Source: Eledone cirrhosa (lineage: Eukaryota). From it: a DNA stretch of 64,000 bases. The DNA is taken from assembly GCA_964016885.1 (NCBI GenBank), contig OZ024746.1, positions 87,916,001-87,980,000 of the forward strand, read 5' to 3'. The notes under the pieces were generated by a model that saw nothing but the letters and a program-made list of their open reading frames with translations, was not told where the DNA came from and did not search any database. This document shows, one piece after another, positions 2,780 through 61,599 of this stretch (its first letter is position 1; each line of letters begins with the position of its first letter). A program made the translations under genes and the position numbers.

Positions 2780-3240
2780 AAATATTGACAACAGTTGGAG
2801 ATTGAATAAATGCTGAAAAATATAACCAGGAAAATATGGAAAACAGACAATAAATAAACATTGCCTGGCATGTGAAATTAACGCTAATTAATTGAAATAT
2901 TGGCTTAATGTAAAACCAGCAATAATAAAGCTACACTTGGAGAAAACGGAGCCTTTTGCTAGTTAGTATTACTGCAGCTGCCACTAGTCGACAAAAATAA
3001 TTTCACAAGGATTTGAAGACAAAATCACATAGCACTGCATGGTACAAATCGATTAATCAAATTAGTGAAATGTTTAGGTATGACGGATGTTCACACAGCG
3101 AGGGAATAAATTGTTATTTTAAAATGAAGCAGAGGCTGAAACCTGCCACAGCAGAAATGGGAGCTTAGTTATGGATATTTTCGAAATTCATGGCAAACTG
3201 ATGGTTTCTTCAGTTTCGGCACAGCACGTAGACCTCTTTA
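2780..3240 (+). pseudogene. Possible highly degraded pogo/Tigger transposase N-terminus
   Basis: Around 3184-3228 reads KFMAN*WFLQFRHS, resembling the FxASxGWFxxFxxRH CENP-B-type HTH motif. Many stops. Confidence 0.3.
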
Positions 3241-9845: not shown

Positions 9846-10122
9846 TATGTATACGTACATACATATATGTATACAGACGTACAGTAGTATGTTTATATAT
9901 ACATATATGCACACATACGTATGGGTTTACCGAACATTTATTATAAATGGTTGCTGAGCACCGTACGGCGTAATTCGGTCTGTTTGTTTACAAAGAAAGC
10001 GAACGTTATAATAAATGTTTGGTAAACCCATACGTACATATATATATGTGTGCATGTATGTATATATATATACATACAACTGTACGTATGTACACATATA
10101 TGTATGTACGTATACATACTTA
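9843..10122. mobile_element. Family A repeat, inverted (fold-back) pair of fragments
   Basis: 9843-9945 is the reverse complement of about 10007-10122, and both match the other family A copies. Confidence 0.8.
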
Positions 10123-10142
10123 TCTCTCTCTCTCTTTCTCTT

Positions 10143-10515: not shown

Positions 10516-10518
<3 letters not shown>

Positions 10519-12307
10519 GTGAGTACAGTCGGCCGAGGACACCGGTGTGATACGTCAACAACTGAAGAGAGATTTCGAGGCATACCGGATCGAGAAGCTC
10601 CTGAAGGCCGCAGAGGAAAATAAGAGCCTCAAGAAATCCGATAGGGGCATGGCAATGTACAGATCGGAGGTGACGACCCTGAAGAACAGAGCTGGTGTAC
10701 CGGTCAGCGACAAGAGTGAGGTGGAACATGTTTGCGAGACTTTTACACGAAGCTCTTCAAGTTTGCCGGGAATGTGCAGCTGTTGCCGTCACTCCAACAG
10801 GAAGAAAATGTACCACCCATCCTTGTCAGTGAGGTCGAAAGAGCCGTCGGCTTCACGAAAAGCGGAAAGGCGACAGGGAAAAACGGCATAACATCGGAGG
10901 TGTTGAAGTCAGGCGGAGAACACCTCTGGAAAATCCTCGCCGAGCGATTCACACACTATCTGATCGAGGGAAGAATACCCTCGCAGTGGGAAGAGTCGAA
11001 TACCATCCTGATATACAAGAAGGGTGATAGAGAAGATCTGAAGAACTACCGACCCATATACCTGCTATCTCACGTGTACAAGCTGTTCATGAAGATAATC
11101 CTGAACAGGTTATCATGTCATCTGGACGAACAGCATCCGACAGAGCAAGCTGGCTTCCGGAAGAACTACAGCACGATGGAACACATATTTACTCTGACAC
11201 AACTGCTTGAGTGAGCGAAAGAGTACAATATGCCTCTTTGCGTCGTGTTCGTAGACGACGGGAAGGCCTTCGACAGCGTCGAAATCAACGCAGTGCTGAA
11301 CTCGCTGCAGAGGCAAGGAGTCGAGGCGCAATACGTTCAACTGCTCAAGGAGGTGAATTCCGGATGCACCACCGCCATAGCTCTGCTGTCATCACCCGTA
11401 CGAGTGCCGGTCGAGAAGGAAGGGAAGCAAGGAGATACGATCTGTCGCAAACTTTTCACCGCGTGTCTCGAGCAGATCATCAGAGCCCGTGACTGGCAAG
11501 GCGGTGTCAACATCAACGGCGAGATACTTACCTACCTCCGTTTCACTGATGACAGCGTACTCATCGCTAGAACCACGGATCAGCTTCTGACCATACTGAC
11601 GGAGCTCGACATCAAAAGCTCTGCAGTAGGCCTCAAGATGAACCGCATCTAAACGAATTTCATGCGGTCCGCCAACGTACCAACAGGTCGAATGGTGGTT
11701 GGCGGTGATGAAATAGAGGAGATGTAGGAATACGTCTACCTAGGACAAGAAGTGAACATGAACCGAGACATTGAGAGGAAGATCTCGCGGAGAGTAAGGG
11801 CATGAATGAAGGCGTTCAACGGCATAAGGGCTGTGCTCAATGGGAGTTTGGACAAGACCACCCGCGCCAACCTCTTCAATAGCACAGTTTTACCTACAAT
11901 GTTATATAGCAGTGAAATTTGGGCTGCAACGAAGAGAGAAGAGCAGAGGCTGGAGAGATCAATGCTAGGATTCTCGTTTAGAGAGCACATCAGGAGCGAA
12001 GTCATCAGACAGAAGTCCGGCGTAAGGGACGTCATCACGAAATATATGTGCAGCAAGTTCAGATGGGCTGGACACGTCGCCCGGTTCACCGATAATCGGT
12101 GGAGCCGCGCAGTTGCTGAGTGGTACCCGCGCGAGCGGAAACGACCACTCGGAAGGCCTCCACGAAGGTGGAGTTACGATTTTAGAAATATGATTGGGAC
12201 TACATGGAGGAGGAAAGCACGAACCAGAGAGGAATGGATGGCGTGCTGTGACAAGCGGCGCTGAATGGACGCCCGGCTGACTGGTCGGTAAAGGTGATCA
12301 AGGTGAT
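10516..12307 (+). mobile_element. 5'-truncated RTE-clade LINE, RT pseudogene
   Basis: Motifs YRPIYLLS, EQAGFR, DDGKAFDSV, KQGDTI, RFTDD, RWAGHVAR, RPLGRPPRRW. Frameshift near 10735 and stops near 11212, 11650, 11725 and 11803. 3' tandem tail AAGGTGATC-AAGGTGAT; TA at both junctions. Confidence 0.95.
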
Positions 12308-16487: not shown

Positions 16488-16840
16488 GGGCGGTAGATTG
16501 GCAGTGTCGGTAGAGCGTCATACTCTTGCAGCATAGAGTGCTGTCCCTTTACGCCCTGAGTTCAAATCCCACCGAGATAAATTTTGCCTTTCATCCTCAC
16601 GGGGTCGGTAAAATAAAGCACTAGTAACGCACTGGGGTAATTGCTGGCCTTGTGGCAAACGAAGAAACAAAGTATCGGTAGAGGTTTGGACGCCATGCTT
16701 TCTAGTATAGTTACGTCCCTTTACAGTCTGAGTTCAAATCCCGCCGAGGTTAACTTTGCCTTTCATCCTTACGTGGTCGATAAAATAAAGTACCAGTAAT
16801 GTACTGGCTAATTGATGGCCTTGTGCCTAAAGTAGAAACA
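16488..16840 (+). mobile_element. Head-to-tail dimer of tRNA-derived SINE, family S1
   Basis: Two units (16488-16670, 16671-16840), each with B box GAGTTCAAATCC, TTTGCCTTTCATCCT..GGTCG.TAAAATAAAG and a GGCCTTGTG..AGAAACA end. Flanked by GTTATAGTAAT / GTTATATTAAT. Confidence 0.9.
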
Positions 16841-17046
16841 GTTATATTAATAATATTATCTATAATGAATCTTGTTGCAGATCATATTTTTACTCAGGGG
16901 CGGACATTCAGCTGCTGACGATCTAAACTAAATTTTCAGACCTTCCTCTAAACAAATTTGGGTAGAAAAATATAGAATTATTATCTACGATTGTTTTTTT
17001 TATAATAATAATGGCAATGATAAAGAAAACTATATATATATATATA

Positions 17047-30244: not shown

Positions 30245-30350
30245 GGCTGATACTTCTTTGATAGACTGTGAAAGGATCAAAGGCAATGTGTAAATCGGTG
30301 GGATTTGAACTCAGATCGCAAAGAACTGGACAACATAGCCAAAGCTCTAA
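30245..30350 (-). mobile_element. Degraded SINE S1 fragment
   Basis: AAGGATCAAAGGCAA..CGGTGGGATTTGAACTCAGATC matches the S1 core. Confidence 0.7.
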
Positions 30351-41380: not shown

Positions 41381-44300
41381 TTCTACCGTGTTGTGATACA
41401 GAATGAGCGGCAGCAGCTGTGTGCTAAGAGAGTAACAATTCTAAGATAATAAGTTTGAAAATTTACTTAGGCGGTTAATTGTCTTGGTTTGCATAGTTTA
41501 TGTATGAAGTCGCTGTGGCGAAACATACCACAATTAAATATAATATGAAGTGCAAAGCTAGAAGCGTGCATATTTTGAAGTAGCTGTAAAATATTTGAAT
41601 AGTAGGGTTTGAATAGAACTTGGAAAAATCTGTTAAAAAATGCTCAAAAATAAATGAACATGTACTTAATACGGTCAATACGAATGAAAGCACTTGGAAT
41701 TGGATATTTCGCGTAAATTTGGTTAAATATTGTCAAATGTATCAGCTGGAATTCAGCAAAGTAATTGAGGTCGCCTGAACTCATTTAAATGGCTGGGAAG
41801 CGCGTTACGTTGAAGGCAATAGATAAGCTTGACACTTTTTGCAATTATTCTTCTAGAATAGGTAGGCACATCTGGCTTTATTATTTATTCGGTCATTCGC
41901 AATCTCTTTCATTTGTCTTCGGGATATACTAATGTCAAGTTCCTCGCGATTCAACGTTAATGTTTCAGGAAAAACCCGTACACACAGATAAATATATATA
42001 TATATGTGTGTGTGTGCCGGTATGGCTTGATTGGGGTGGAAATATGTTAGGTATATCTGCCCCTAAAAATTACCATAATAACATATTGTTTACAACTAGT
42101 AGAATTCCCAACGAAATCAATGCGAGGCATTAAAAACACTATATGAAGGATTCGTTAGGTTTATACAAATAACAGAAACACATACACATGCGTGGTAAGG
42201 CGAGCATACATTCGTACATACATGCATCTTTGCACGCAAATTCACACGCTAACACATATACACTATCTGTCTCTCTCTCACTCTCAGAACTGTATACCGT
42301 GTGATTCGTAGTATAGGACGCGCTTTTTTTTTCAAAAATATGACACTCAAAATCACTGTGTTAGGTTTGGAGTAATTACAGACGATAAAAATTGTATAAT
42401 TAATAAGTTGGAAATATTTAGCCTTTTGTTTAAATTTTCGAAGTGATAAGAATGATAGTAACGTTAATAGTATTAATTACCCATAATTTTTTTTCTTGCT
42501 GGATATTCATGTTAAATTTAGAGTGCCTCCAATATTGCAGTGTCCGAAAAATACGGAATGCTTCAATTTGTATACAAACATGTGTGTTTGTGTGTAGTTT
42601 TTCGTTTCAACCATGGCCACACAATTATTAATTATCAAACATTAATGATTGAACCGAGGTAAAATTTCATGTGTTACATTTTTACTTCACACTCCCCGTT
42701 TCTAGATGTTGACGTAAGTTTAAAAATGAAAAGAATAAAATAACAACAGAAAACAGAATTAAAGAACAACAATCAAGGAAAAACACGAACTCCACAGCGC
42801 ACAGATGGTAAGTAAATATTTTCTTGCGTGAACAAGCAGATATAGATATGTAACTACCATCAGAGAGACCAGAATTTCTGACACACGCGCAATAACACCC
42901 ACATTTAAAGACAAGCAGTAGTGTGAAAGTGTTGTTTAGGAAAAGCCTTGATCTCGACGTAAAGAAGATCTTCCTGAACCCGGAAGTTGGGACTACGTGG
43001 GAGTAGCTGATAGTAGCTGAGTTGCAATAGAATCGAGTGCCTGATCAGCCAGTTCAAACTGGATGACAGGTACTCACTAGATTTCCAAAATACTCTTGTT
43101 TGGACCAGTAAAAAACAGAGAGCGACATATAATTCGTATCTAGATGGGTTTTTCGTCACATAAACTGATAAGGATAGTATAGGTTAACCATATTTCTGAA
43201 CGGTTGCCTATTAAGATCACAAATTTGTGATCTGTATGATCGATCTAGATAGAATATGTTTAGTTAGATCAGTTTATTGAAAACTTAAAACTTCGTCCTG
43301 GTGATTAAAAAGGTGGTTGGAGGCTCTGAAGAGAGAGGTTAGATACATATAAATAGCTTTTAGTAAATATATAGCGAAAGAAAAATATAGAAAGCAAAGT
43401 GAACTGCTAGCTAAATGAGAGAAGGCTATTAGAATGTGCATTGATATGCTAGAGGCTGGAATAACATTTCTTCAATAAGAAACGCGAAGCTTACATTTCC
43501 GGGCTCAGGTTTAAGAAACGAGGGAACGATAGCTTTTCAATGGATGCTAGTGTTGAGGCCTAGTTTCGTAACATATTCACGATACACTCTTTGACGGATC
43601 TAGATGAAGGTTTCCGCCAGTAGTTTGTTCGAGTTTGACGGAGTGGGCTCGGAGACCTACTTGGACGGTCTCTTGCCTACTTAGCCAGCCGATGGAGGGT
43701 GCTGTGAAAGGGGGATAACTTCAGCCGAAATTTAGGATGCTCTGTTTGTCTTCACGAGGCGCAAGACACCGAGTTGGGGAGTGTGCTCTCCGAGTTATAC
43801 GTATACCAGATATGTTGTCCAATTTCCATTGTTACACCGAATAATTCATTCAACATTTATTACTTCTCATAGATAAATTAACCAGGATCACAGTGAGCTG
43901 GTTAGTCTTTCAACTTCCGTCGCCTTTAGGGGTTAAACCGAGGTCTAAATATTAGTTTAAAAAAATAAATTTGCGGATTAGTTATACACGTTTGTTGAAA
44001 GGAATTACTACCCCTCCACCGAATGTAAGGGTAAATCATTCACAGCAGCAACCTATACCAGAATCAACAACGAAGCAGAGGAAATGTACGCAATGAATTT
44101 TCCGCTGATAAAAATGTCAACACTACCATCGCTATCACAGGTGCTACAACATAATATAATGACAACAACAGCAACAATACTAGCGAGACATCTTCTTCCT
44201 CCACTACAAGTAACACCAACAACTCAAACGACAACAACACCCCAACCACCAGCAGAGCATCAACATAATATATCAGAGGCAAATAACAAAAATAGCAGTA

Positions 44301-46953: not shown

Positions 46954-47024
<71 letters not shown>

Positions 47025-47028
<4 letters not shown>

Positions 47029-47666
47029 AGCTATCGCCGTATTTTGACTAAAGAAATTAAATAAATTATTTAGCCTGATAGTGGGGTTAAGAACCGTCGG
47101 AAAAATGCGAAAAAATGAGTATTGACGTACATGGTAGTCAAACCCACATCTTCGGTTAATCGGACCACTGTGCTACAATTTACACATCACCCATTTTTTT
47201 TCCATTCAAATTAGAAGCTATAAGCTTAGCGACTGTAATGTCAAGTAAGAATATTTTCGAAACAGCGAGTGCGTTTGAAATTATTAGAAATGTAAATTAT
47301 CGCCGTATTTTGACTAAAGAAATTAAATAAATTATTTAGCATGATAGTGGGGAAAAGAACCCTCGGAGAAATGTAAAACAGATGAGTATTTATGTACATG
47401 GGAGTCGAACCCACATCTTTGGTTATCCCGACCACTGTGCTACCATTTACACCAACACACTAGCCGTCTTATTCCATTCAAATTAGAAGCTATAAAATTA
47501 GCGACTGCAATGTCAAGTAAGAATATTTTCGAAACAGCGAGTGGGTTTGAAATTATTAGAAATGTAAGCTATCGCCATATTTTGACTAAATAAATTAAAG
47601 TAATTATTTAGCCTGAAAGGGGGGTTAAGAACCCTCGGTGTCGCTAAGTTTATAGCTTCTAATTTG
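47025..47666. mobile_element. Partial tandem array (about 270 bp unit, 2.3 copies) with a tRNA-like module and an inverted terminal piece
   Basis: Units start at 47025, 47291 and 47563. Minus-strand tRNA-like TGGTGTAAATGGTAGCAC..GTGGGTTCGACTCCCAT at 47391-47460 and about 47123-47190. 47640-47666 is an inverted copy of CAAATTAGAAGCTATAA..TTAGCGAC. Confidence 0.85.
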
Positions 47667-54197: not shown

Positions 54198-54258
<61 letters not shown>

Positions 54259-54322
54259 GCTGCTGCTACTGCTGCTGCTGCTGCTAATACTACTACTACT
54301 GCTGCTCCTGACGATGCTGCTG

Positions 54323-54382
<60 letters not shown>

Positions 54383-54472
54383 ATACTACTACTTCTACTA
54401 CTACTACTACCACTACTACTGCTACTACTACTACCACTACCACTACCACTACTACTAATAATACTAATAATA
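54198..54472. repeat. Compound (ACT)n/(GCT)n microsatellite at a SINE tail
   Basis: Long ACT run with GCT, ACC and AAT variants, contiguous with the 3' end of SINE 54474-54650. Confidence 0.97.
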
Positions 54473-54473
54473 A

Positions 54474-54649
54474 GTGTTTCTATTTTTAGGCACAAGGCCA
54501 GCAATTAACCAGTACATTACTGGTACTTTATTTTATCGACCCCGTAAGCATGAAAGGCAAGGTTAAACCCGGCGGCATCTAAACTCAGATCATAAAGGGA
54601 CGTAACTCTATGCTTCAAAGCATGGTGTCCGACTCTCTACCGATACTGC

Positions 54650-54650
<1 letters not shown>
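54474..54650 (-). mobile_element. SINE family S1
   Basis: S1 match. 3' end GGCCTTGTGCCTAAAAATAGAAACACTTATTATT; the 5' end abuts (AAT)n. Confidence 0.9.
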
Positions 54651-54685
<35 letters not shown>

Positions 54686-54914
54686 TTTTCTTTATTAACC
54701 ACAAGGGTTTACATAAAGTAGACATTAAGGACAGTACAGGACAATAAAGGACGGTACAAATGGGCATTTCTGCGTGTAAAAAAACAGAGGTTGAAATAAA
54801 ATTCCCCAATAGGGGGGAGACTTCCGAGGGACATTTGTGGAGAAAGCCCATTAAAAGACCACAGTGGCCCTGACCACCAGGGCAAGTGCCCTCTCCCAGT
54901 TTTCCACCTTTAAT

Positions 54915-57900
54915 TTACAGACACATACTCAGAGAAGGCCCATTCATTCGGGCCATACTTGCTTCTCTCACCCATCTTTCAACAAAATGCTGGGAAGAGA
55001 GCACTTCCCTCTCTACCCTGATTTTCCTTTTCAAATGAAATTTGAAAAAGTTAATCAGGGCATCACCGAAGAGGTAAGTGCTCGTCTTCAGCCCTTTCAA
55101 ACGTGTCCACCATACTATCTCTTTCGCCATGGCCACCAGACAGATAAAAACTGCCTGCCCTTCCCGGCTAAAGGAAGGGGGCGGGGCAATCCTCACGATG
55201 GACTCAGCTCATAGCTGGATCCGTCCTACACGTGACGGCAGGTGTTCGACAGAAACCCACAAGTCAGCAATGCTCGGACACAGGACGAGTGCGTGCAGGA
55301 CGGTTTCGTCGCCCTGCGCGCATCTCGGACATGCCCGGCTGACGGCACCTCCATGCCTGTAGAGTTTATCCCGAACTGGCAAAGCTCCTCGGTAGCACTG
55401 CCAGGCCAGGGATTTCTGGAAGTTGTCCATAGGCCCCGGCCCGAAAGTCCTTCCGAAGAGATTGGCTAGTTGATTTTCGTCGACGCCTAGAGTTTCTCCA
55501 AGTACGTCGTCGCTCTTCCCCTCCACTAATCCCCTATAGAACGCCAAGGTGGAGTTTCCACCGATCACATTGCCCGATTGGTCGAGGGCTGTGAGCGCCT
55601 GAAGACATTCCAGTCTCCAAGCGCTCCCTCTCGGTCTTCGCCTGACCCAGGACTGCAGCTCCGTCAAGGAGACGAGCTGGGGAAAAACGTGTCTTGCAAA
55701 CGGCGACCACACCTGATCACCGTCGAGGAAGAGGTGGAGATGTCGTATCCTGAGTGCGTGTCTGCGCATCATCAGCCACGGCATGCCCAGCCCTCCACGT
55801 AGCGGGTGTTGACAGCAGATGGACCGCCTGACCATCGGAGCGCGTCCCTTCCACAAGAAGCGAAAGAGCAAACGCTCCAGCGCAGTCAGGCGGGGCTTAG
55901 GACAAGGTACGACGGTCAGGCGGTAGTAGATGACGGATGCGATGTACGCATTCGCCACCTCCGCTCGACCTTTCAGGGATAGCTTCCTCTCGGCCCATTT
56001 CTGGGTGAGAGAAGCCACCCTGCTCGTCACCTCGTCCCAGTTTTTGTCCGTCTGGAGGTCTGGACCGAACAAGACCCCTAGCAATTTAACCGGTCCGTCC
56101 GTCCAGCGCCCGACGACGCTGTTGGACGGCATGGACCTGCCTCTCCAGGTGCCGAGCTGCAGGCCCACTGACTTTTCCTGGTTGATCATTGCTCCTGTCA
56201 CCGCTTCGTATTCTCTTAGTGTAGTGCCGATCACCTCGATGTGTTTGGCGTTCGACACCACTACGGTGACATCGTCGGCATATGCTGACACGGATCTTCC
56301 GCATCCTAGTTCGCGCGGGACCCCCCTCAACGTCTCCAGTTTGTGCAGTAATGGCTCGAGAGTCAATACGTACAATAGGGACGAGAGGGGACATCCTTGG
56401 CGGACCGAGCGCATGATGTTGAACGGTTCCGAAAGGTGACCGTTCACTCTCACTACAGAGCAGATGTCGCTGTGCATGGCAGCGATCCCGCCTCTGAAGA
56501 CGGGCCCAAAGCCAGCCGCCCTCAGGACTCCCGCTAGGTAACGATGGTCGACCCTATCGAAGGCTTTCGACTGATCTAAATTGATCAAAGACCCATCCGT
56601 GCCAGGTTCCTTAGCTACCCTCTCTACGATGTATCGCATGAGGTGGAGGTTGTCGTGGATGGATCTGTCGGGAATGGCGCATGTATGTGCCTCTCCCAAC
56701 AGACCACCAACGACAAGCGCCAACCTCTTTGCTAGCACCTTGGCCAAAATCTTGAACTCTGTGTTTAGCAGAGTTATGGGCCGGAAATTATCTATGTTAT
56801 CCCCCTTGTTCGGATCCTTTCTCAGCAGCGCCACCGCTCCTCGGCTCACACAGCTGGGAATTCTCCCGTTCTGTTGCCAGTTGCAGTAGACGTCCGCCAA
56901 GAGGCCTCCGAACAAGTTTGGCATTTGTACGTAAAGTTCATAGGGCAGAGCATCCAAACCAGGCGATTTACCCCTTGTGCAACTAATCATTGCATCCCGT
57001 ACTTCAGCGGTTGTTATCGGCTTTTCGCAACACTCCGCCTCAGTGGCCGAAATCCGCGGCAGTCCGTCGTGGTAGACACTAAAGTCCATCCCTCGACCCG
57101 GCCCGCCACTGCCCCCGAACAGTTGAGCGAAGTGTCGCTGAAAAGCTTCACACGTTTGCCCGGGATCGAGTAGCATGCGCCCGTCGTGGTCCACCAAAGA
57201 CCGGATCGTGTCTTTGTTGCCACGACGCGCCTCCGCCACTCGGGCCCATTGAACGGCTTTCGTCCCCTCGTTTCTGAGAGCACGCACCCTAGCTCTGACA
57301 ACGCAGCCTTCGTGCTTTGCATTGAAGAATTGGTCAAGGGCCAATTTCGCCGCAAGTACGTCGGTCACGATGCCTTTGCTAAGCGCCTCATCTAATTTTC
57401 TAACTAATTCTCCCTCTGCTCTATTTTTCTCTATTGCTAAAGTCTTACTAAACCTAATGGACTCTATTCTAATTGCTCTTTTCAGAGCAAACCACCACTT
57501 GTTGTTGACGATGGCCCCCGTCAACGCCCGCTTAACTAGTTCGCTAATCCGGTCTCTGTAGGCCTTGCGCGCTGGTAAGGACGCGTTTAGCTTCCAGTAG
57601 CCGGGTCCTCGTCTATGAAGCCTATCTAAGTCAAGCACACAGATCACGAATTTGTGGTCCGTGTAGCTGACTATCTTGAATTGTGGACAGCCTATGCTAG
57701 ACCTATCTATTTCCCTACAAAATACTCTATCTAGATATGATCTGGATGACCCTATGCGATTTGTCCAAGTCCACATTGGTACATTCGGGAAATCCATTCG
57801 GTACCTGTCAGACAGTTCAAAACGTCTGAGCAGGTTGGTGAGACTCTTGCACCCCCCTTCCCTATCCACTAATCCCACACAATCCCAGCGTGCATCTAAG

Positions 57901-58222
57901 ATCCCGTTCCAGTCGCCCACTAACACTAAAGAGCGGGACGTTCCAAGAAAGGTCTCCAGACGCCGGAAGAAATCAGGCCGCCCTGATCCAAACCTCTCCG
58001 AAAAAGCACAGCAACTCCTCCCTCCGATCCCGGACGGCTGGGAGATGCGTACACATCGTAGCCGCCGAAGATCGGTGCGAAAGCCTGTGCTTCGGAGATT
58101 CTGGTCTCGCTGATGGCCACTACATCTATGTTTAGTGACCTGAGGTCGTTGAGCAGGTGGCCCTGCTTCCATGACGACCCCAAGCCACGCGCATTTATGC
58201 TGCCTATTCTGAGTGAGGTCAT
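54915..58222 (-). pseudogene. Tx1 ORF2: APE endonuclease, reverse transcriptase, C-terminal zinc knuckle (disabled)
   Basis: Starts MTSLRIGSINARGL..ISETR..GGVAVL. A deletion/frameshift near 57990 removes the VYAP region. Then GDWN, LDRVF, TDH, GYWKLN, FRPITLLN, LDQSKAFDRV, VRQGCPLS, YADD, CPRC..ETVLHALVLC. Premature TGA at 55209-55211; frame continues to 54915. Confidence 0.93.
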
Positions 58223-58256
58223 GTTGAAAAGGAGTGGAAAAGATGGGAAAGACCAC

Positions 58257-60206
58257 TTACCTTACTTCTCGTAGGGGAAGGACGGCTTTTCCATCCTTTT
58301 CACTGCTTGTGGCCTCCTCAGGAAGGATGTCCTTATAAATCCTCCTGGAGAGTGCTTGTCGGAAGTCTCCGATGTCTGTGGGGAATTTTTGTTTTAGTGT
58401 CATGTACGTTTTCTGTGTGATGCGAGTGATTTGTATGTGTGGAGGTGGTGTGAATTTTGGGGTTGTTGTGTAGTCTTTTTCTGTGATGCTGGTGTTGTGT
58501 TGGATGTAGTGTAATAATTGCTTGTTGTTCAAATTTAATGCTGTGTAGTGTGTATCGTTTTGGTTGTTTTGTTTTGTTTGCGTTTGTTGTGGGTTTGTTT
58601 CTGTTTCGCATTTTGGTGACTTTTGTGGTGTAGGTGATGGTGGTGTTGGAGTTAATGATGGTGATGGTGTTGGTGTTTGGGTTGATGGGGTTGGTGATGC
58701 TGTGTGGATGGTGGCATATCTGTCCTAACTTTTTTGTTTCTTAGTTTATTTGTTTCCCTCTGTATTTTGTTTTTGGAGGGGGAAGGAAGATAATTTTTTC
58801 TTTTTTGGTTTCTTTTTTTTTTCCGGATATCGTTTCCCACTCCTCGTCGTCACAATCTGTCTCCAGTTGTGATAGGCCGGGGAGTGGAAAATCCTCCACA
58901 GCCGTTAGTTTTGGTTGTGGTGTGGTGGATGGTGTAGGCGCTGGTGCTAGTTCTGAAGCGTTGGGTGGTGGTGGTGTTGGTTTTGCTACTGTTGCTGGGG
59001 TTGTTGCTGTTATAGTTGCTTCTGTTGTTGCTGCTACAGTTGTTGCTGCCATCTCTGCTACTGGTGGTGTTGATGGTTGTGTCACTGGGGTGGGTAGGAG
59101 AGGTGGCCTCAACCTTTTAGCCTGAGAGCAGAAAGCCCTTAGGTGGGTTCCTTCACCACAAACGACACACCTAGGTCTTCTGCCCTCGACAATTACCGTG
59201 AGGTGGCTGCCGTCAGTGAGGTCTATTACCTCTGGGATCTCCTCAATGCTTTTTTGGTCCGCTTGGATCAGGAGCTCCATCCCAGATCCGGACCAGTTTT
59301 CCTGCTTTTCTTTTGCTACTGCTATTATTTTCGTGTTGGCTTCGATGCCGGCGAGGACAGCCGCTATTAGCCAGGGAATTTCGATGGCCGGTGGAACGTG
59401 GGTCACCCTGATCTTTACGAGTCTCTGGCCACAATAGCTTGGGACGAGTGTGAGGTCGTCACTTTTTAATGGGGCCATGGAGTGTTCTCTAGCCTCCTCT
59501 GGTGTTTCAAAGAACACATCCACGGTTCCATACTTTTGCCCACGTCTGATGTGGGTTTTTCTTGCCCGCACATTTCCCAAAGCTTTTTGGATTTGGGACT
59601 CGGATGCCCGTTCCACTCGGCGCGATTTTACATTTATTGTTCTATACGACACAGTGCACAGGCGCCGATGCTCCATTTTATTAGGTGGGAGGTGAGGCTG
59701 ACCCTGTACACATCTTTCTTTACCATTTGTTTGGCATTTTCTAAATCTTCTTGAGTTACCGTGAACGCTTCGAATTGTTTTGCTACGATGGCGAAACTGA
59801 GGGTCGGTTTTATAATGTCATTGTTGTTGTTGTTGCTATCGTTATTTGTGTTAATCTTAATTTTTGTTTCAGTTTTGGTGGTGGTGACGTCATTCGTCTT
59901 TGGTGCGGAAGAGTCCATTTCGACATCACGAGTTAATTTATTTTTTTCTTCTTTTGTTTCTGTTGTCGCGGTGGTGGTGGGGGTGGTGGTTGTCGCGGTG
60001 GTGGTGGTGGTGGAGGCTTTAACATCTGCAGTCATTGGTAATGGCGGGAAATGAATGTCTGCCTGAGACAAATTTAAAATATTGCTACTGCTTATATTTT
60101 TTTTTGTGTTGGCAAACGTAGTAACATTTAGAATGGTGGTGTCGGTGTGAGGTGTTATCTTGTGAGGAAGGCTTTCAGCTGCTTCGTGCAGAGGGGAATT
60201 AGCCAT
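58257..60206 (-). pseudogene. Tx1 ORF1 (gag-like: RRM-like region, CCHC knuckle, low-complexity tails), frameshifted
   Basis: ATG at 60206, frameshift in an A-run near 59677, CVVCGEGTHLRAFC (CX2CX4HX4C), further shifts at about 58500-58800, stop about 35 bp before the ORF2 ATG. Confidence 0.85.
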
Positions 60207-60415
60207 TTTTCTTCAAAGAAATTTTTGGATAATAATAAAAGTTAAAATTTTGGGCACAAGGCCCCAATCTTTTTGGGTGTCCTTTTCGGAAAACAATGTA
60301 TGTGTGCTTATAAACAGTTTACAATAACATTTTCCATAAATGGCAATTTTTAAACAAACAGAAATAACAAACCTTTGCGGAGCTCACGATAATACGATTT
60401 CCTACGTAGGTCGCC

Positions 60416-60469
<54 letters not shown>

Positions 60470-60874
60470 TGATATGTATGTTCCAATAGACAAGAATGTA
60501 TCTATAAAAACATTTGAAAAATTGAGCAAGTATAAGGACCTGGAGATAGAAATTGGAAAAATGTGGAAATTGAGAACTAAAACAATACCAGTGGTTGTAG
60601 GCGCTCTGGGAATGATACCTAAGGGGTTTAACGACTACTTATCGCAAATCCAAGGAAACCCGCGTATAGGAGAAATACAAAAGATAGTACTAATGGGAAC
60701 TGCCCATATACTAAGGAAGATCCTGTCAATAAAAGTACATCACAAGTCTAAACACTAAGGATGCATGTGTGAATATGTGTGTTCTTTCTTGAACATGGCG
60801 GACCTTGTTGTCTCTTGAGGTCACTGGTTGTGACTTGGTGATAACTCGTATAAACATAAAGCAAGATAAATGCA
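60470..60874 (+). mobile_element. 5'-truncated R4/Dong-clade element (restriction-like endonuclease C-terminus) in (TAA)n
   Basis: IIDMYVPIDKN..EKLSKYKDLEIEIGKMW..IPVVVGALG..IQKIVLMGTAHILRK, a short 3' UTR, and (TAA)n on both sides. Confidence 0.9.
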
Positions 60875-60904
60875 AATAATAATAATAATAATAATAAAAA
60901 TAAT

Positions 60905-60954
<50 letters not shown>

Positions 60955-61599
60955 TAATAATAATAATAATAATAATAAAAGAATTACCAATAATTCATCA
61001 GTTATCAGTGTGCCAAAATAAAGACATTACGAAAGCTTTCATCTCTTTCACATTTACTTTTTTCTGTATTCATTTTACCTCTAAATCTTATCTCTGTTAC
61101 AATTAATAAATGTATCTGTCTATATATCTGTCTATCTCATACGTCTTGCAAAACCGTGACAAAAGGATTATTCCCATTATCTAATTATTATTCGACGAGA
61201 CACACACATGTACATACAGCTGTATCCAACTGAATATATAGACACCAACAACATACAGGCTACATAGATTGTGATAAAGAATATAACTTCATTAGTCCAC
61301 AAGTCTGTCTAATGAATTCGTTATGAGAATTAGGGTGAAGACTTTCAGAATTAATTTTTCTTCAGTCATTTAACGTTCTGTTGAATTTTTTTCTAATCTG
61401 ATTGCATTACATTAATTATATACTTATTTAGTCAAATAGGATATTATGTGATGAATTATCTCGTATGTCGAACAGGGTAGTAGTTTTCTCATAGTAATTT
61501 ACTAATACTCCGATCGCAATGATTTTGAAATAAGAATCAGTTTAGAGAAACCAGCTGAAGCAGTATTATGATTTCTTCCTTCCTTCATCATCGTCATCC

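Follow-up and report, generated by a model that had tools for sequence, protein, structure and literature searches.

The genome of the octopod Eledone cirrhosa contains, in the 64,000-nucleotide stretch of contig OZ024746.1 analyzed here (positions 87,916,001 to 87,980,000; hereafter the window, whose own coordinates are used throughout), a long interspersed nuclear element (LINE) embedded in an AAT microsatellite. We observe that the 3' end of this LINE, a predicted hairpin with a CTTGT loop followed by (ATT)n, is in register with the 3' end of a tRNA-type short interspersed nuclear element (SINE) of the same window, and that the hairpin appears to be common to related elements; this is what we consider new. 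The anatomy, lesions and flanks of the LINE and the shared motif are direct observations, and the evidence on target specificity comes from a single copy of the family with its flanks. The explanation that we favor, with a probability of roughly one half, is that the hairpin guides reverse transcription and that the ATT tail favors AAT sites without a strict dependence on them.

Possible shared 3' end of the LINE and the SINE family

The SINE family is represented in the window by nine nhmmer hits, whose copies are 72-86% alike; the counts given here exclude the ninth hit (30247-30324), in which both ends are missing. Motifs resembling boxes A and B are visible by eye, and ARAGORN and Rfam found none. 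Long ATT tails are frequent among octopod SINEs. At the 3' end of the eight copies, a word resembling GGC-CTTGT-GCC is followed by about 12 nt, the last of which read AGAAAC or nearly so, and by a short ATT-like run. In the LINE, the terminal order is AACC-CTTGT-GGTT, AATAAAGAAAAC, (ATT)11, which places it in the same register as the SINE ends from the loop to the tail. A second hairpin with the same loop precedes the first open reading frame (ORF1) of the LINE (Table 1).

A profile of the eight SINE ends (including copy S44, which lies outside alignment A3) was scored at 124,288 non-SINE positions. The site in the 5' region of the LINE (60229-60264) ranks first with 17.4 bits, and the LINE terminus (its last 24 nt) ranks third with 10.1 bits. 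For the former, none of 300 shuffles reaches its score against SINE copies S54 and S62. Among the 122 CTTGT words in the window, only three have a Watson-Crick stem of at least 4, all of them in the LINE or a SINE. In a hairpin alignment of 16 sequences, 80% of the cells are paired and two-sided changes occur in three of the five pairs. The stem letters differ between LINE and SINE and still pair, with a covariation of 0.21 versus 0.073 in shuffled alignments (0 of 500 as high). We also find GGC-CT(T/C/A)GT-GCC in all 38 loci of a sister lineage (described below), located 18-22 nt ahead of AATAAA in the 10 loci measured. The position of this hairpin at the 3' end of the unit is shown by the array start in locus L023 and by copies in L013 and L015 that are truncated at the 5' end. 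We rejected the idea that the SINE tail is shared by the neighboring LINE fragment with a restriction-like endonuclease (RLE) or by a fragment at 10516 that we take to be RTE-like, as neither 3' end scored in the SINE-end profile.

Several results weigh against a shared 3' structure. An unrelated site takes the second rank in the profile scan, at 10.2 bits, just above the LINE terminus. Controls slid by +1 and +3 still give a covariation of 0.18 and 0.16, and the covariation stems from few events among related sequences. Local alignment of the LINE 3' untranslated region (UTR) to the SINEs is not significant (28-220 of 300 shuffles as high), and for the long tails of the SINEs against the 3' blocks of the relatives 3-142 of 300 shuffles score as high. 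The 3' UTR folds no better than its shuffles (z -0.44), the SINE 60-mers fold differently, and a pattern search with the 3' motif gives 12 matches where 7.5 are expected (7 of 100 shuffles as high). Moreover, the motif was originally spotted by eye, and the sister-lineage elements have no ATT tail. Alignments of the UTR to relatives were equalled by 10-157 of 200 shuffles. All in all, we regard the shared 3' hairpin as a good lead, and the most promising one, on a structure that is predicted rather than proven.

Insertion site

The LINE body extends from 54685 to 60415 on the minus strand (5,731 bp) and differs from its surroundings by a GC content of 0.47-0.57, versus a background of about 0.33. 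Pure (AAT)11 (54652-54684) and (AAT)18 (60416-60469) directly touch its two ends, and excision of 54685-60415 joins both flanks into a single in-phase AAT array. The junction on the primer strand is AAT/element. The element lacks a 3' poly(A); read along its own strand, AATAAA is followed by 6 nt and then by (ATT)11. On both points, the pure flanks and the missing poly(A), we agree with an earlier interpretation made from the DNA letters (the sequence-only reading). That interpretation also called the element full-length. Both ORF starts are present (ATG 60206 for ORF1 and ATG 58222 for ORF2), therefore the LINE is near full length, and the claim holds to this extent; its 5' boundary is ambiguous, at 60415 or at about 60228, a point that was not raised before. 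The stretch 60228-60415 can thus be either the 5' UTR of the LINE or a separate short kin element.

In the latter case, the 5' junction of the LINE would lie behind the ATT tail of that short element, and the LINE would have been inserted at the end of its kin as part of a small head-to-tail array. Three co-oriented units each end in a CTTGT hairpin and ATT, and relatives with 42-45% identity do occur in head-to-tail arrays of about 6.4-6.8 kb, joined just past the hairpin and AATAAA. Nevertheless, only 22 nt of 5' UTR would remain to the LINE, neither a SINE body nor an Rfam family corresponds to the 188-nt stretch (an Rfam scan of 60150-60950 matched nothing), and the arrays of the relatives could stem from tandem amplification. 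We therefore consider such targeting of kin ends very improbable as a separate explanation, and it overlaps with the one that we favor.

One triplet tract holds three retroelements: the LINE, a co-oriented SINE, and the RLE-type LINE fragment, which is presumably R4/Dong-like. The neighbors on either side are absent from the sequence-only reading. The AAT array probably existed before the LINE arrived, because the SINE and the R4/Dong-like fragment occupy the same tract, which supports the earlier proposal of an insertion into a pre-existing array at this site. Slippage by the LINE was rejected as the origin of the 5' array, since a tail forms at the 3' end.

How unusual this placement is was estimated from the window and from this single insertion event. 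Only 92 of the 58,269 empty-site positions (0.16%) have an AAT-class repeat of at least 12 nt on both sides, about 2.5% are equally deep when every kind of di- or trinucleotide array is counted, and, of the 3,118 T/AA steps, 72 (2.3%) are inside AAT arrays. For a random insertion, the placement of this one event in an AAT array is unlikely. A non-specific, AT-preferring element of the Tx1/L1 group could still have landed there by chance and been singled out as striking. The window contains 145 tandem-repeat rows within its 64 kb, the share of T/AA steps in AAT arrays is the one just given, and the presumably RTE-like fragment at 10516 likewise abuts a (TA)n run. In Octopus vulgaris, 421 recent L1-Tx1 insertions are reported in 13 families (PMC13282606, Table 1 therein), so a few such cases would be expected if the present host is similar. 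Chance leaves unexplained, however, the missing poly(A), the SINE-like end made of a hairpin plus ATT, and the three retroelements in one triplet tract, and we find it improbable.

Target choice

We propose that the LINE was likely inserted by target-primed reverse transcription, in which the ORF2 protein would recognize a small CUUGU-loop hairpin in the 3' part of the RNA and its apurinic/apyrimidinic endonuclease-like (APE) domain would nick the (AAT)n strand, plausibly at a T/AA step. The AAT end thus released would pair with the (AUU)n tail of the RNA and prime cDNA synthesis, and slippage would lengthen the repeat. Insertion would therefore be favored in long AAT arrays and in the ATT tails of kin elements, and short ATT-rich sites would also be usable. 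The same machinery, or that of a sister family, would likely copy the tRNA-type SINE, which has the hairpin and the tail in common with the LINE.

Alternatively, the APE endonuclease could be strictly specific for (AAT)n, with both flanks being target DNA and the element having no tail of its own, which we regard as possible, though doubtful. Strict specificity would agree with the scarcity of window sites this deep in an AAT array (0.16%), with more distant relatives sitting in 5S (L040, L042) and U1 (L038) genes, and with the frequent target specificity within the Tx1 clade (PMC4494074). The tract is also probably older than the LINE and holds an element of a kind reported to target TAA (PMC3812793). 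On the other hand, there is one copy only, (AAT)4 or more was found in none of the 45 related loci, and the SINE copies that carry this 3' signature lie outside arrays. Indeed, within 60 nt upstream, (ATT)3 or more occurs in one of the seven SINE copies with a head (S49, which is headless, being left out), namely the copy touching the LINE, and in none of the other six. This last count agrees with our own reading, against which it has to be held that old flanking arrays may have decayed, the copies being only 72-86% alike.

The specificity loop of the endonuclease, delimited by the T192-S202 anchors, has 9 residues in the element, as in L1, versus 11 in L009, Tx1L and TRAS1. This loop has been implicated in target choice (PMC1950540), and its L1-like length speaks slightly against strict specificity; it is weak evidence because loop length does not predict the target. 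A search with the C-terminal half of the endonuclease alone found no L1 endonuclease structures. Altogether, the indirect evidence leans to an ATT tail combined with a preference, because the 3' end of the LINE matches that of a SINE family otherwise found outside arrays. Some preference for AAT is quite likely, because tail preference and strict specificity both imply an enrichment in AAT.

A broader scenario can be drawn, which we put forward tentatively and think rather unlikely to hold as a whole. An invertebrate Tx1 lineage that recognizes its RNA through the CUUGU hairpin might have given rise to an octopod branch with a newly acquired (AUU)n tail and AAT targeting. This branch would have converged on the microsatellite used by RLE-type Dong elements, through a different nuclease and on the opposite strand. 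It might be the autonomous partner of a major octopod tRNA-SINE family and hence a main source of octopus AAT arrays.

Lesions and age

The sequence-only reading noted few lesions and regarded the insertion as fairly recent; the first statement does not survive comparison with the relatives. The APE domain has a frameshift near 57980 and a gap of 38-39 codons, measured against six of six intact relatives, which removes the YAPN motif; in an intact relative, this motif aligns to the human L1 endonuclease. ORF2 also has a premature stop (Table 1), and ORF1 has at least two frameshifts, one near 59695 and one between about 58830 and 58725, as judged from the tblastn frames. One of the ORF1 frameshifts, near an A run, could be an assembly error. 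An active autonomous LINE requires two intact ORFs, which this copy lacks. Judging from its reading frames, the copy is dead and cannot supply the endonuclease, contrary to the suggestion that a site-specific endonuclease could be reconstructed: the YAPN segment is lost here, and the closest proteins found, P0001 and P0002, begin downstream of the endonuclease domain.

The element deviates at 14 of the 188 near-invariant ORF2 columns, and P0001 keeps the shared residue at 11 of those. There are about 2.3 replacement sites per codon. We estimate the drift of the LINE copy at roughly 2.5-3%, an upper estimate because some changes may be family differences. This exceeds the cut-off of 2% used for recently active elements in PMC13282606 and, taken as an upper bound at the rate of that source, would correspond to an age of some 7-8 million years. 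We reject a very recent insertion.

No second copy of the LINE was found in the window by blastn, and its 3' 716 nt had no blastn match in a plasmid collection. An old relative on the plus strand was detected by tblastn at about 42800-43800 (65% identical over 214 nt), too decayed to be informative on its flanks. It is part of a heavily broken ORF2 remnant (42790-43800) of a related Tx1-like family, which keeps about 12 codons of the missing endonuclease segment.

Coding regions

ORF1 runs from ATG 60206 to a stop at 58257-58259. The model of its core has a mean predicted local distance difference test score (pLDDT) of 90.8 and shows two RRM-like domains followed by a CCHC knuckle, with the spacing C-x2-C-x4-H-x4-C read from the sequence. 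The top 10 Foldseek matches of the core are all tandem-RRM or other RNA-binding structures, and Transposase_22 was not matched in the Pfam scan of the LINE ORFs. A full scan gave 352 ORF1 relatives at E<=0.001, whereas a word-indexed search had matched none of 7,999 candidates.

ORF2 runs from ATG 58222 to a stop at 54915-54917, with YADD at 56271-56282 and CPRC at 55320-55331. Pfam identifies an N-terminal APE domain (Exo_endo_phos), a reverse transcriptase (RT; RVT_1) and a C-terminal zinc finger (zf-RVT), the organization of the L1 group. ORF2 matches 61 of the 8,000 scored candidates, the best being P0001, with 702 of 910 aligned residues identical (77%). The nearest matches with a name are octopod: a protein of Argonauta hians (68% identity) and a fragment within a gene model of Octopus bimaculoides (71% over 7% of the query). 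In three gene models (P0059, P0193 and P0274), host domains (neprilysin, astacin and low-density lipoprotein (LDL)-receptor repeats) are fused with ORF2 or ORF1 pieces of the lineage of the LINE, probably as mis-annotated exons.

At the ORF1 stop (58250-58262, minus strand), we find a splice-donor-like TAAGGTAAGT, conserved in seven of eight sister-lineage loci despite a protein identity of 42%. Similarly, TAAGGTAAG after the ORF1 stop is common to the element and seven of the eight sister-lineage loci checked. The conserved TAAGGTAAGT may bear on the expression of ORF2.

Clade and related loci

Among solved chains, the closest to ORF2 is the L1 ORF2p (145 bits, human L1), with R2 at 71 bits. 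In phmmer searches, the window ORF2 scores 355 bits with the U1-inserted L038, 280 and 252 bits with the 5S-inserted L042 and L040, and 209 bits with the vertebrate-L1-like P0046. P0043, P0046 and P0053 were considered as human L1 proteins and rejected, as they reach at most 634 bits with human L1. In a careful tree of 27 rows, the element groups with P0001 and P0002 (100/99), L001, L009 and P0005 join next (100/98), and the element falls with L038 in a group of 12 rows (80/93); deeper nodes are weak. A tree of 71 rows was a quick version, from which six short rows and P0059 were dropped. The tree rows include no named Tx1 family, and loci inserted in RNA genes serve as proxies. The combination of RRM and CCHC in ORF1 is consistent with Tx1 and is not unique to it (PMC5203782). 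The ORF anatomy, and a similarity that is greater with elements inserted in RNA genes than with mammalian L1, suggest that the LINE probably belongs to the Tx1 group, as the sequence-only reading had assumed.

A contig scan for relatives gave 45 loci, all in records labelled as bacterial and yet evidently eukaryotic LINE DNA. The sister lineage comprises 38 of them (L001-L037 and L045; contigs CAXXMW01..., labelled Arenicella), with ORF2 42-45% identical to that of the element. In these loci, two-ORF LINEs that belong to several families and are mostly intact follow one another head to tail with a period of about 6.4-6.8 kb, and 5'-truncated copies are joined right behind the AATAAA of the preceding unit. 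The only array start seen, in L023, lies in unique DNA. These loci look like eukaryotic DNA binned as bacterial, from a self-targeting, array-forming Tx1-type lineage. No credible Rfam RNA was found in the spacer of L009 (11 matches, all far under the gathering score).

The poly(A) ends of L040 (2726-2844) and L042 (4422-4534) are joined to 5S rRNA sequence. Mutsu targets 5S and Dewa tRNA spacers, and we take the arrangement in L040 and L042 to be Mutsu-like. In L038, U1 sequence (3036-3199 and 9961-10137) accompanies an intact two-ORF relative (28% identity), which ends in a short A run attached to the 3' portion of a U1 snRNA gene. A full U1 copy lies just 5' of the element, with about 190 bp duplicated. 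Between this copy and ORF1 (L038:3305-3365) are two short stretches that, in our view, resemble histone gene starts (MSGRG, MARTKQ). L038 might thus be a U1-inserted or U1-headed Tx1-like element. U1-headed Tx1 families have been described (PMC4494074).

Neighboring elements

The features of the locus are listed in Table 1. The SINE at 54476-54651 ends in the same CTTGT hairpin, running into ATT and then into (AGT)n. Elsewhere in the window, two SINE copies lie head to tail (16490-16860), the second being 5'-truncated and joined straight onto the 3' end of the first, which may echo the pattern of insertion at kin ends.

The RLE fragment at 60470-60874, which we take, also in view of its TAA flanks, to be R4/Dong-like, matched 226 of 294 candidates. 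All 16 matches longer than 1,100 aa align to it through their last 86-88 residues, with 58-69% identity. Its full-length matches contain an RT and no APE domain (four of four scanned), together with a CCHC finger and an RPD...D...K motif, that is, the single ORF with a C-terminal RLE of R4/Dong elements. The ESM Atlas gave unnamed clusters only. The truncation point of the fragment shares AAT-like bases with the array.

The presumably RTE-like fragment (10516-12306, plus strand) is a 5'-truncated LINE with an RT, whose 5' end is directly against (TA)19. A 272-bp tandem repeat (2.3 copies, 47024-47638) overlaps a weak tRNA-Ser call at 47389-47462.

Table 1 Features of the LINE and its flanks, in window coordinates.
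Feature	Position	Strand	Basis
Imperfect (TAC)n array, continuous with the ATT tail of the SINE	54198..54466	.	
tRNA-type SINE, co-oriented with the LINE, 5'-truncated at (ATT)11	54476..54651	-	
3' (ATT)11 on the element strand: tail, target repeat, or both	54652..54684	-	
LINE body, APE-type two-ORF non-LTR retrotransposon (L1 group, probably Tx1 clade), inactive	54685..60415	-	ORF map, Pfam, tblastn of relatives
3'-terminal predicted hairpin AACC-CTTGT-GGTT, AATAAA directly after	54691..54709	-	
ORF2: APE endonuclease, RT, C-terminal CCHC-type finger	54915..58222	-	Pfam, tblastn of relatives
Premature in-frame ORF2 stop, 97 codons ahead of the true end	55209..55211	-	P0001 and others align through in the same frame
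Endonuclease break: frameshift and 38-39 codons lost, including the conserved YAPN motif	57977..57983	-	Alignment with intact relatives
ORF1, at least two frameshifts; core 59086-59685 with two RRM-like domains and CCHC knuckle	58257..60206	-	
Second predicted hairpin GGGC-CTTGT-GCCC with a short run of ATT, 22 nt ahead of the ORF1 start	60229..60264	-	
5' (ATT)18 on the element strand, flanking the opposite-strand RLE fragment on its 5' side as well	60416..60469	-	
RLE-type LINE, 5'-truncated 3' end, 405 bp	60470..60874	+	
(AAT)n tract adjoining the RLE fragment on its 3' side	60875..60976	+	

Comparison with known systems

Microsatellite-targeting Tx1 elements and TAA-targeting Dong elements are already known, and an AAT-specific Tx1 family would add one target. 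If our reading is true, a Tx1 lineage with stringent recognition of a 3' hairpin would be a candidate partner for the SINE, would explain the ATT tails, and would offer a natural system in which to weigh nicking against tail-primer pairing as determinants of the target. We found neither an AAT-targeting Tx1 family nor a Tx1 partner for an octopus SINE in the open literature, Repbase, Dfam and subscription papers being outside the scope of this search. In O. vulgaris, SINEs make up 11.6% of the genome, Dong-R4 elements are abundant, and the repeat supplement lists 80 L1-Tx1 and 51 Dong-R4 families, a term search of it finding no mention of targets (PMC13282606).

Microsatellite-targeting Tx1 families of fish and crocodilians, Kibi and Koshi among them, insert in (TC)n, (TTC)n, (TTCC)n or (TTTC)n, Kibi being found in (TC)n and Koshi in (TTC)n, and the target of Keno, U2, was likewise confirmed (PMC4494074). 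Like the window LINE, these are two-ORF APE-type LINEs inside a microsatellite; their targets were shown on many copies, whereas we describe one copy, in (AAT)n and in an octopod. A family is considered target-specific in that source when more than 20% of its copies are flanked by the same target, and in our single copy the target repeat is found on both flanks, in phase. SINEU families mobilized by Tx1 were linked to it through shared targets and 5' heads (PMC4494074).

Dong is reported to insert in TAA microsatellites, including in a snail (PMC3812793), and thus shares the TAA/AAT microsatellite with the window LINE, which differs in being APE-type and in opposite orientation to the adjoining RLE fragment. 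R4-clade elements encode an RLE (PMC4640811), whereas PMC3812793 lists Dong as APE type. The sister lineage (L001-L037, L045) has the same predicted 3' hairpin and forms a sister clade at 100/98, with ORF2 42-45% identical. Its elements are intact and arranged head to tail, and they lack both an ATT tail and any microsatellite where the units join, whereas the window LINE is broken and lies in AAT.

LINE and SINE 3' stem-loops that are shared and followed by repeat tails, with slippage, are an established mode of retrotransposition, and the excerpts of PMC3747384 name no Tx1 pair of the stringent type. In eel UnaL2 and in maize LINE1-1_ZM/ZmSINE2, a 3' stem-loop with a conserved loop and a variable stem is shared by LINE and SINE, and the short-repeat tail that terminates UnaL2 serves in slippage (PMC3747384). 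The predicted hairpin and ATT tail described here resemble this arrangement; UnaL2 belongs to the L2 clade and LINE1-1_ZM to plant L1, and the stretch shared by the window LINE and the SINE is only about 24 nt.

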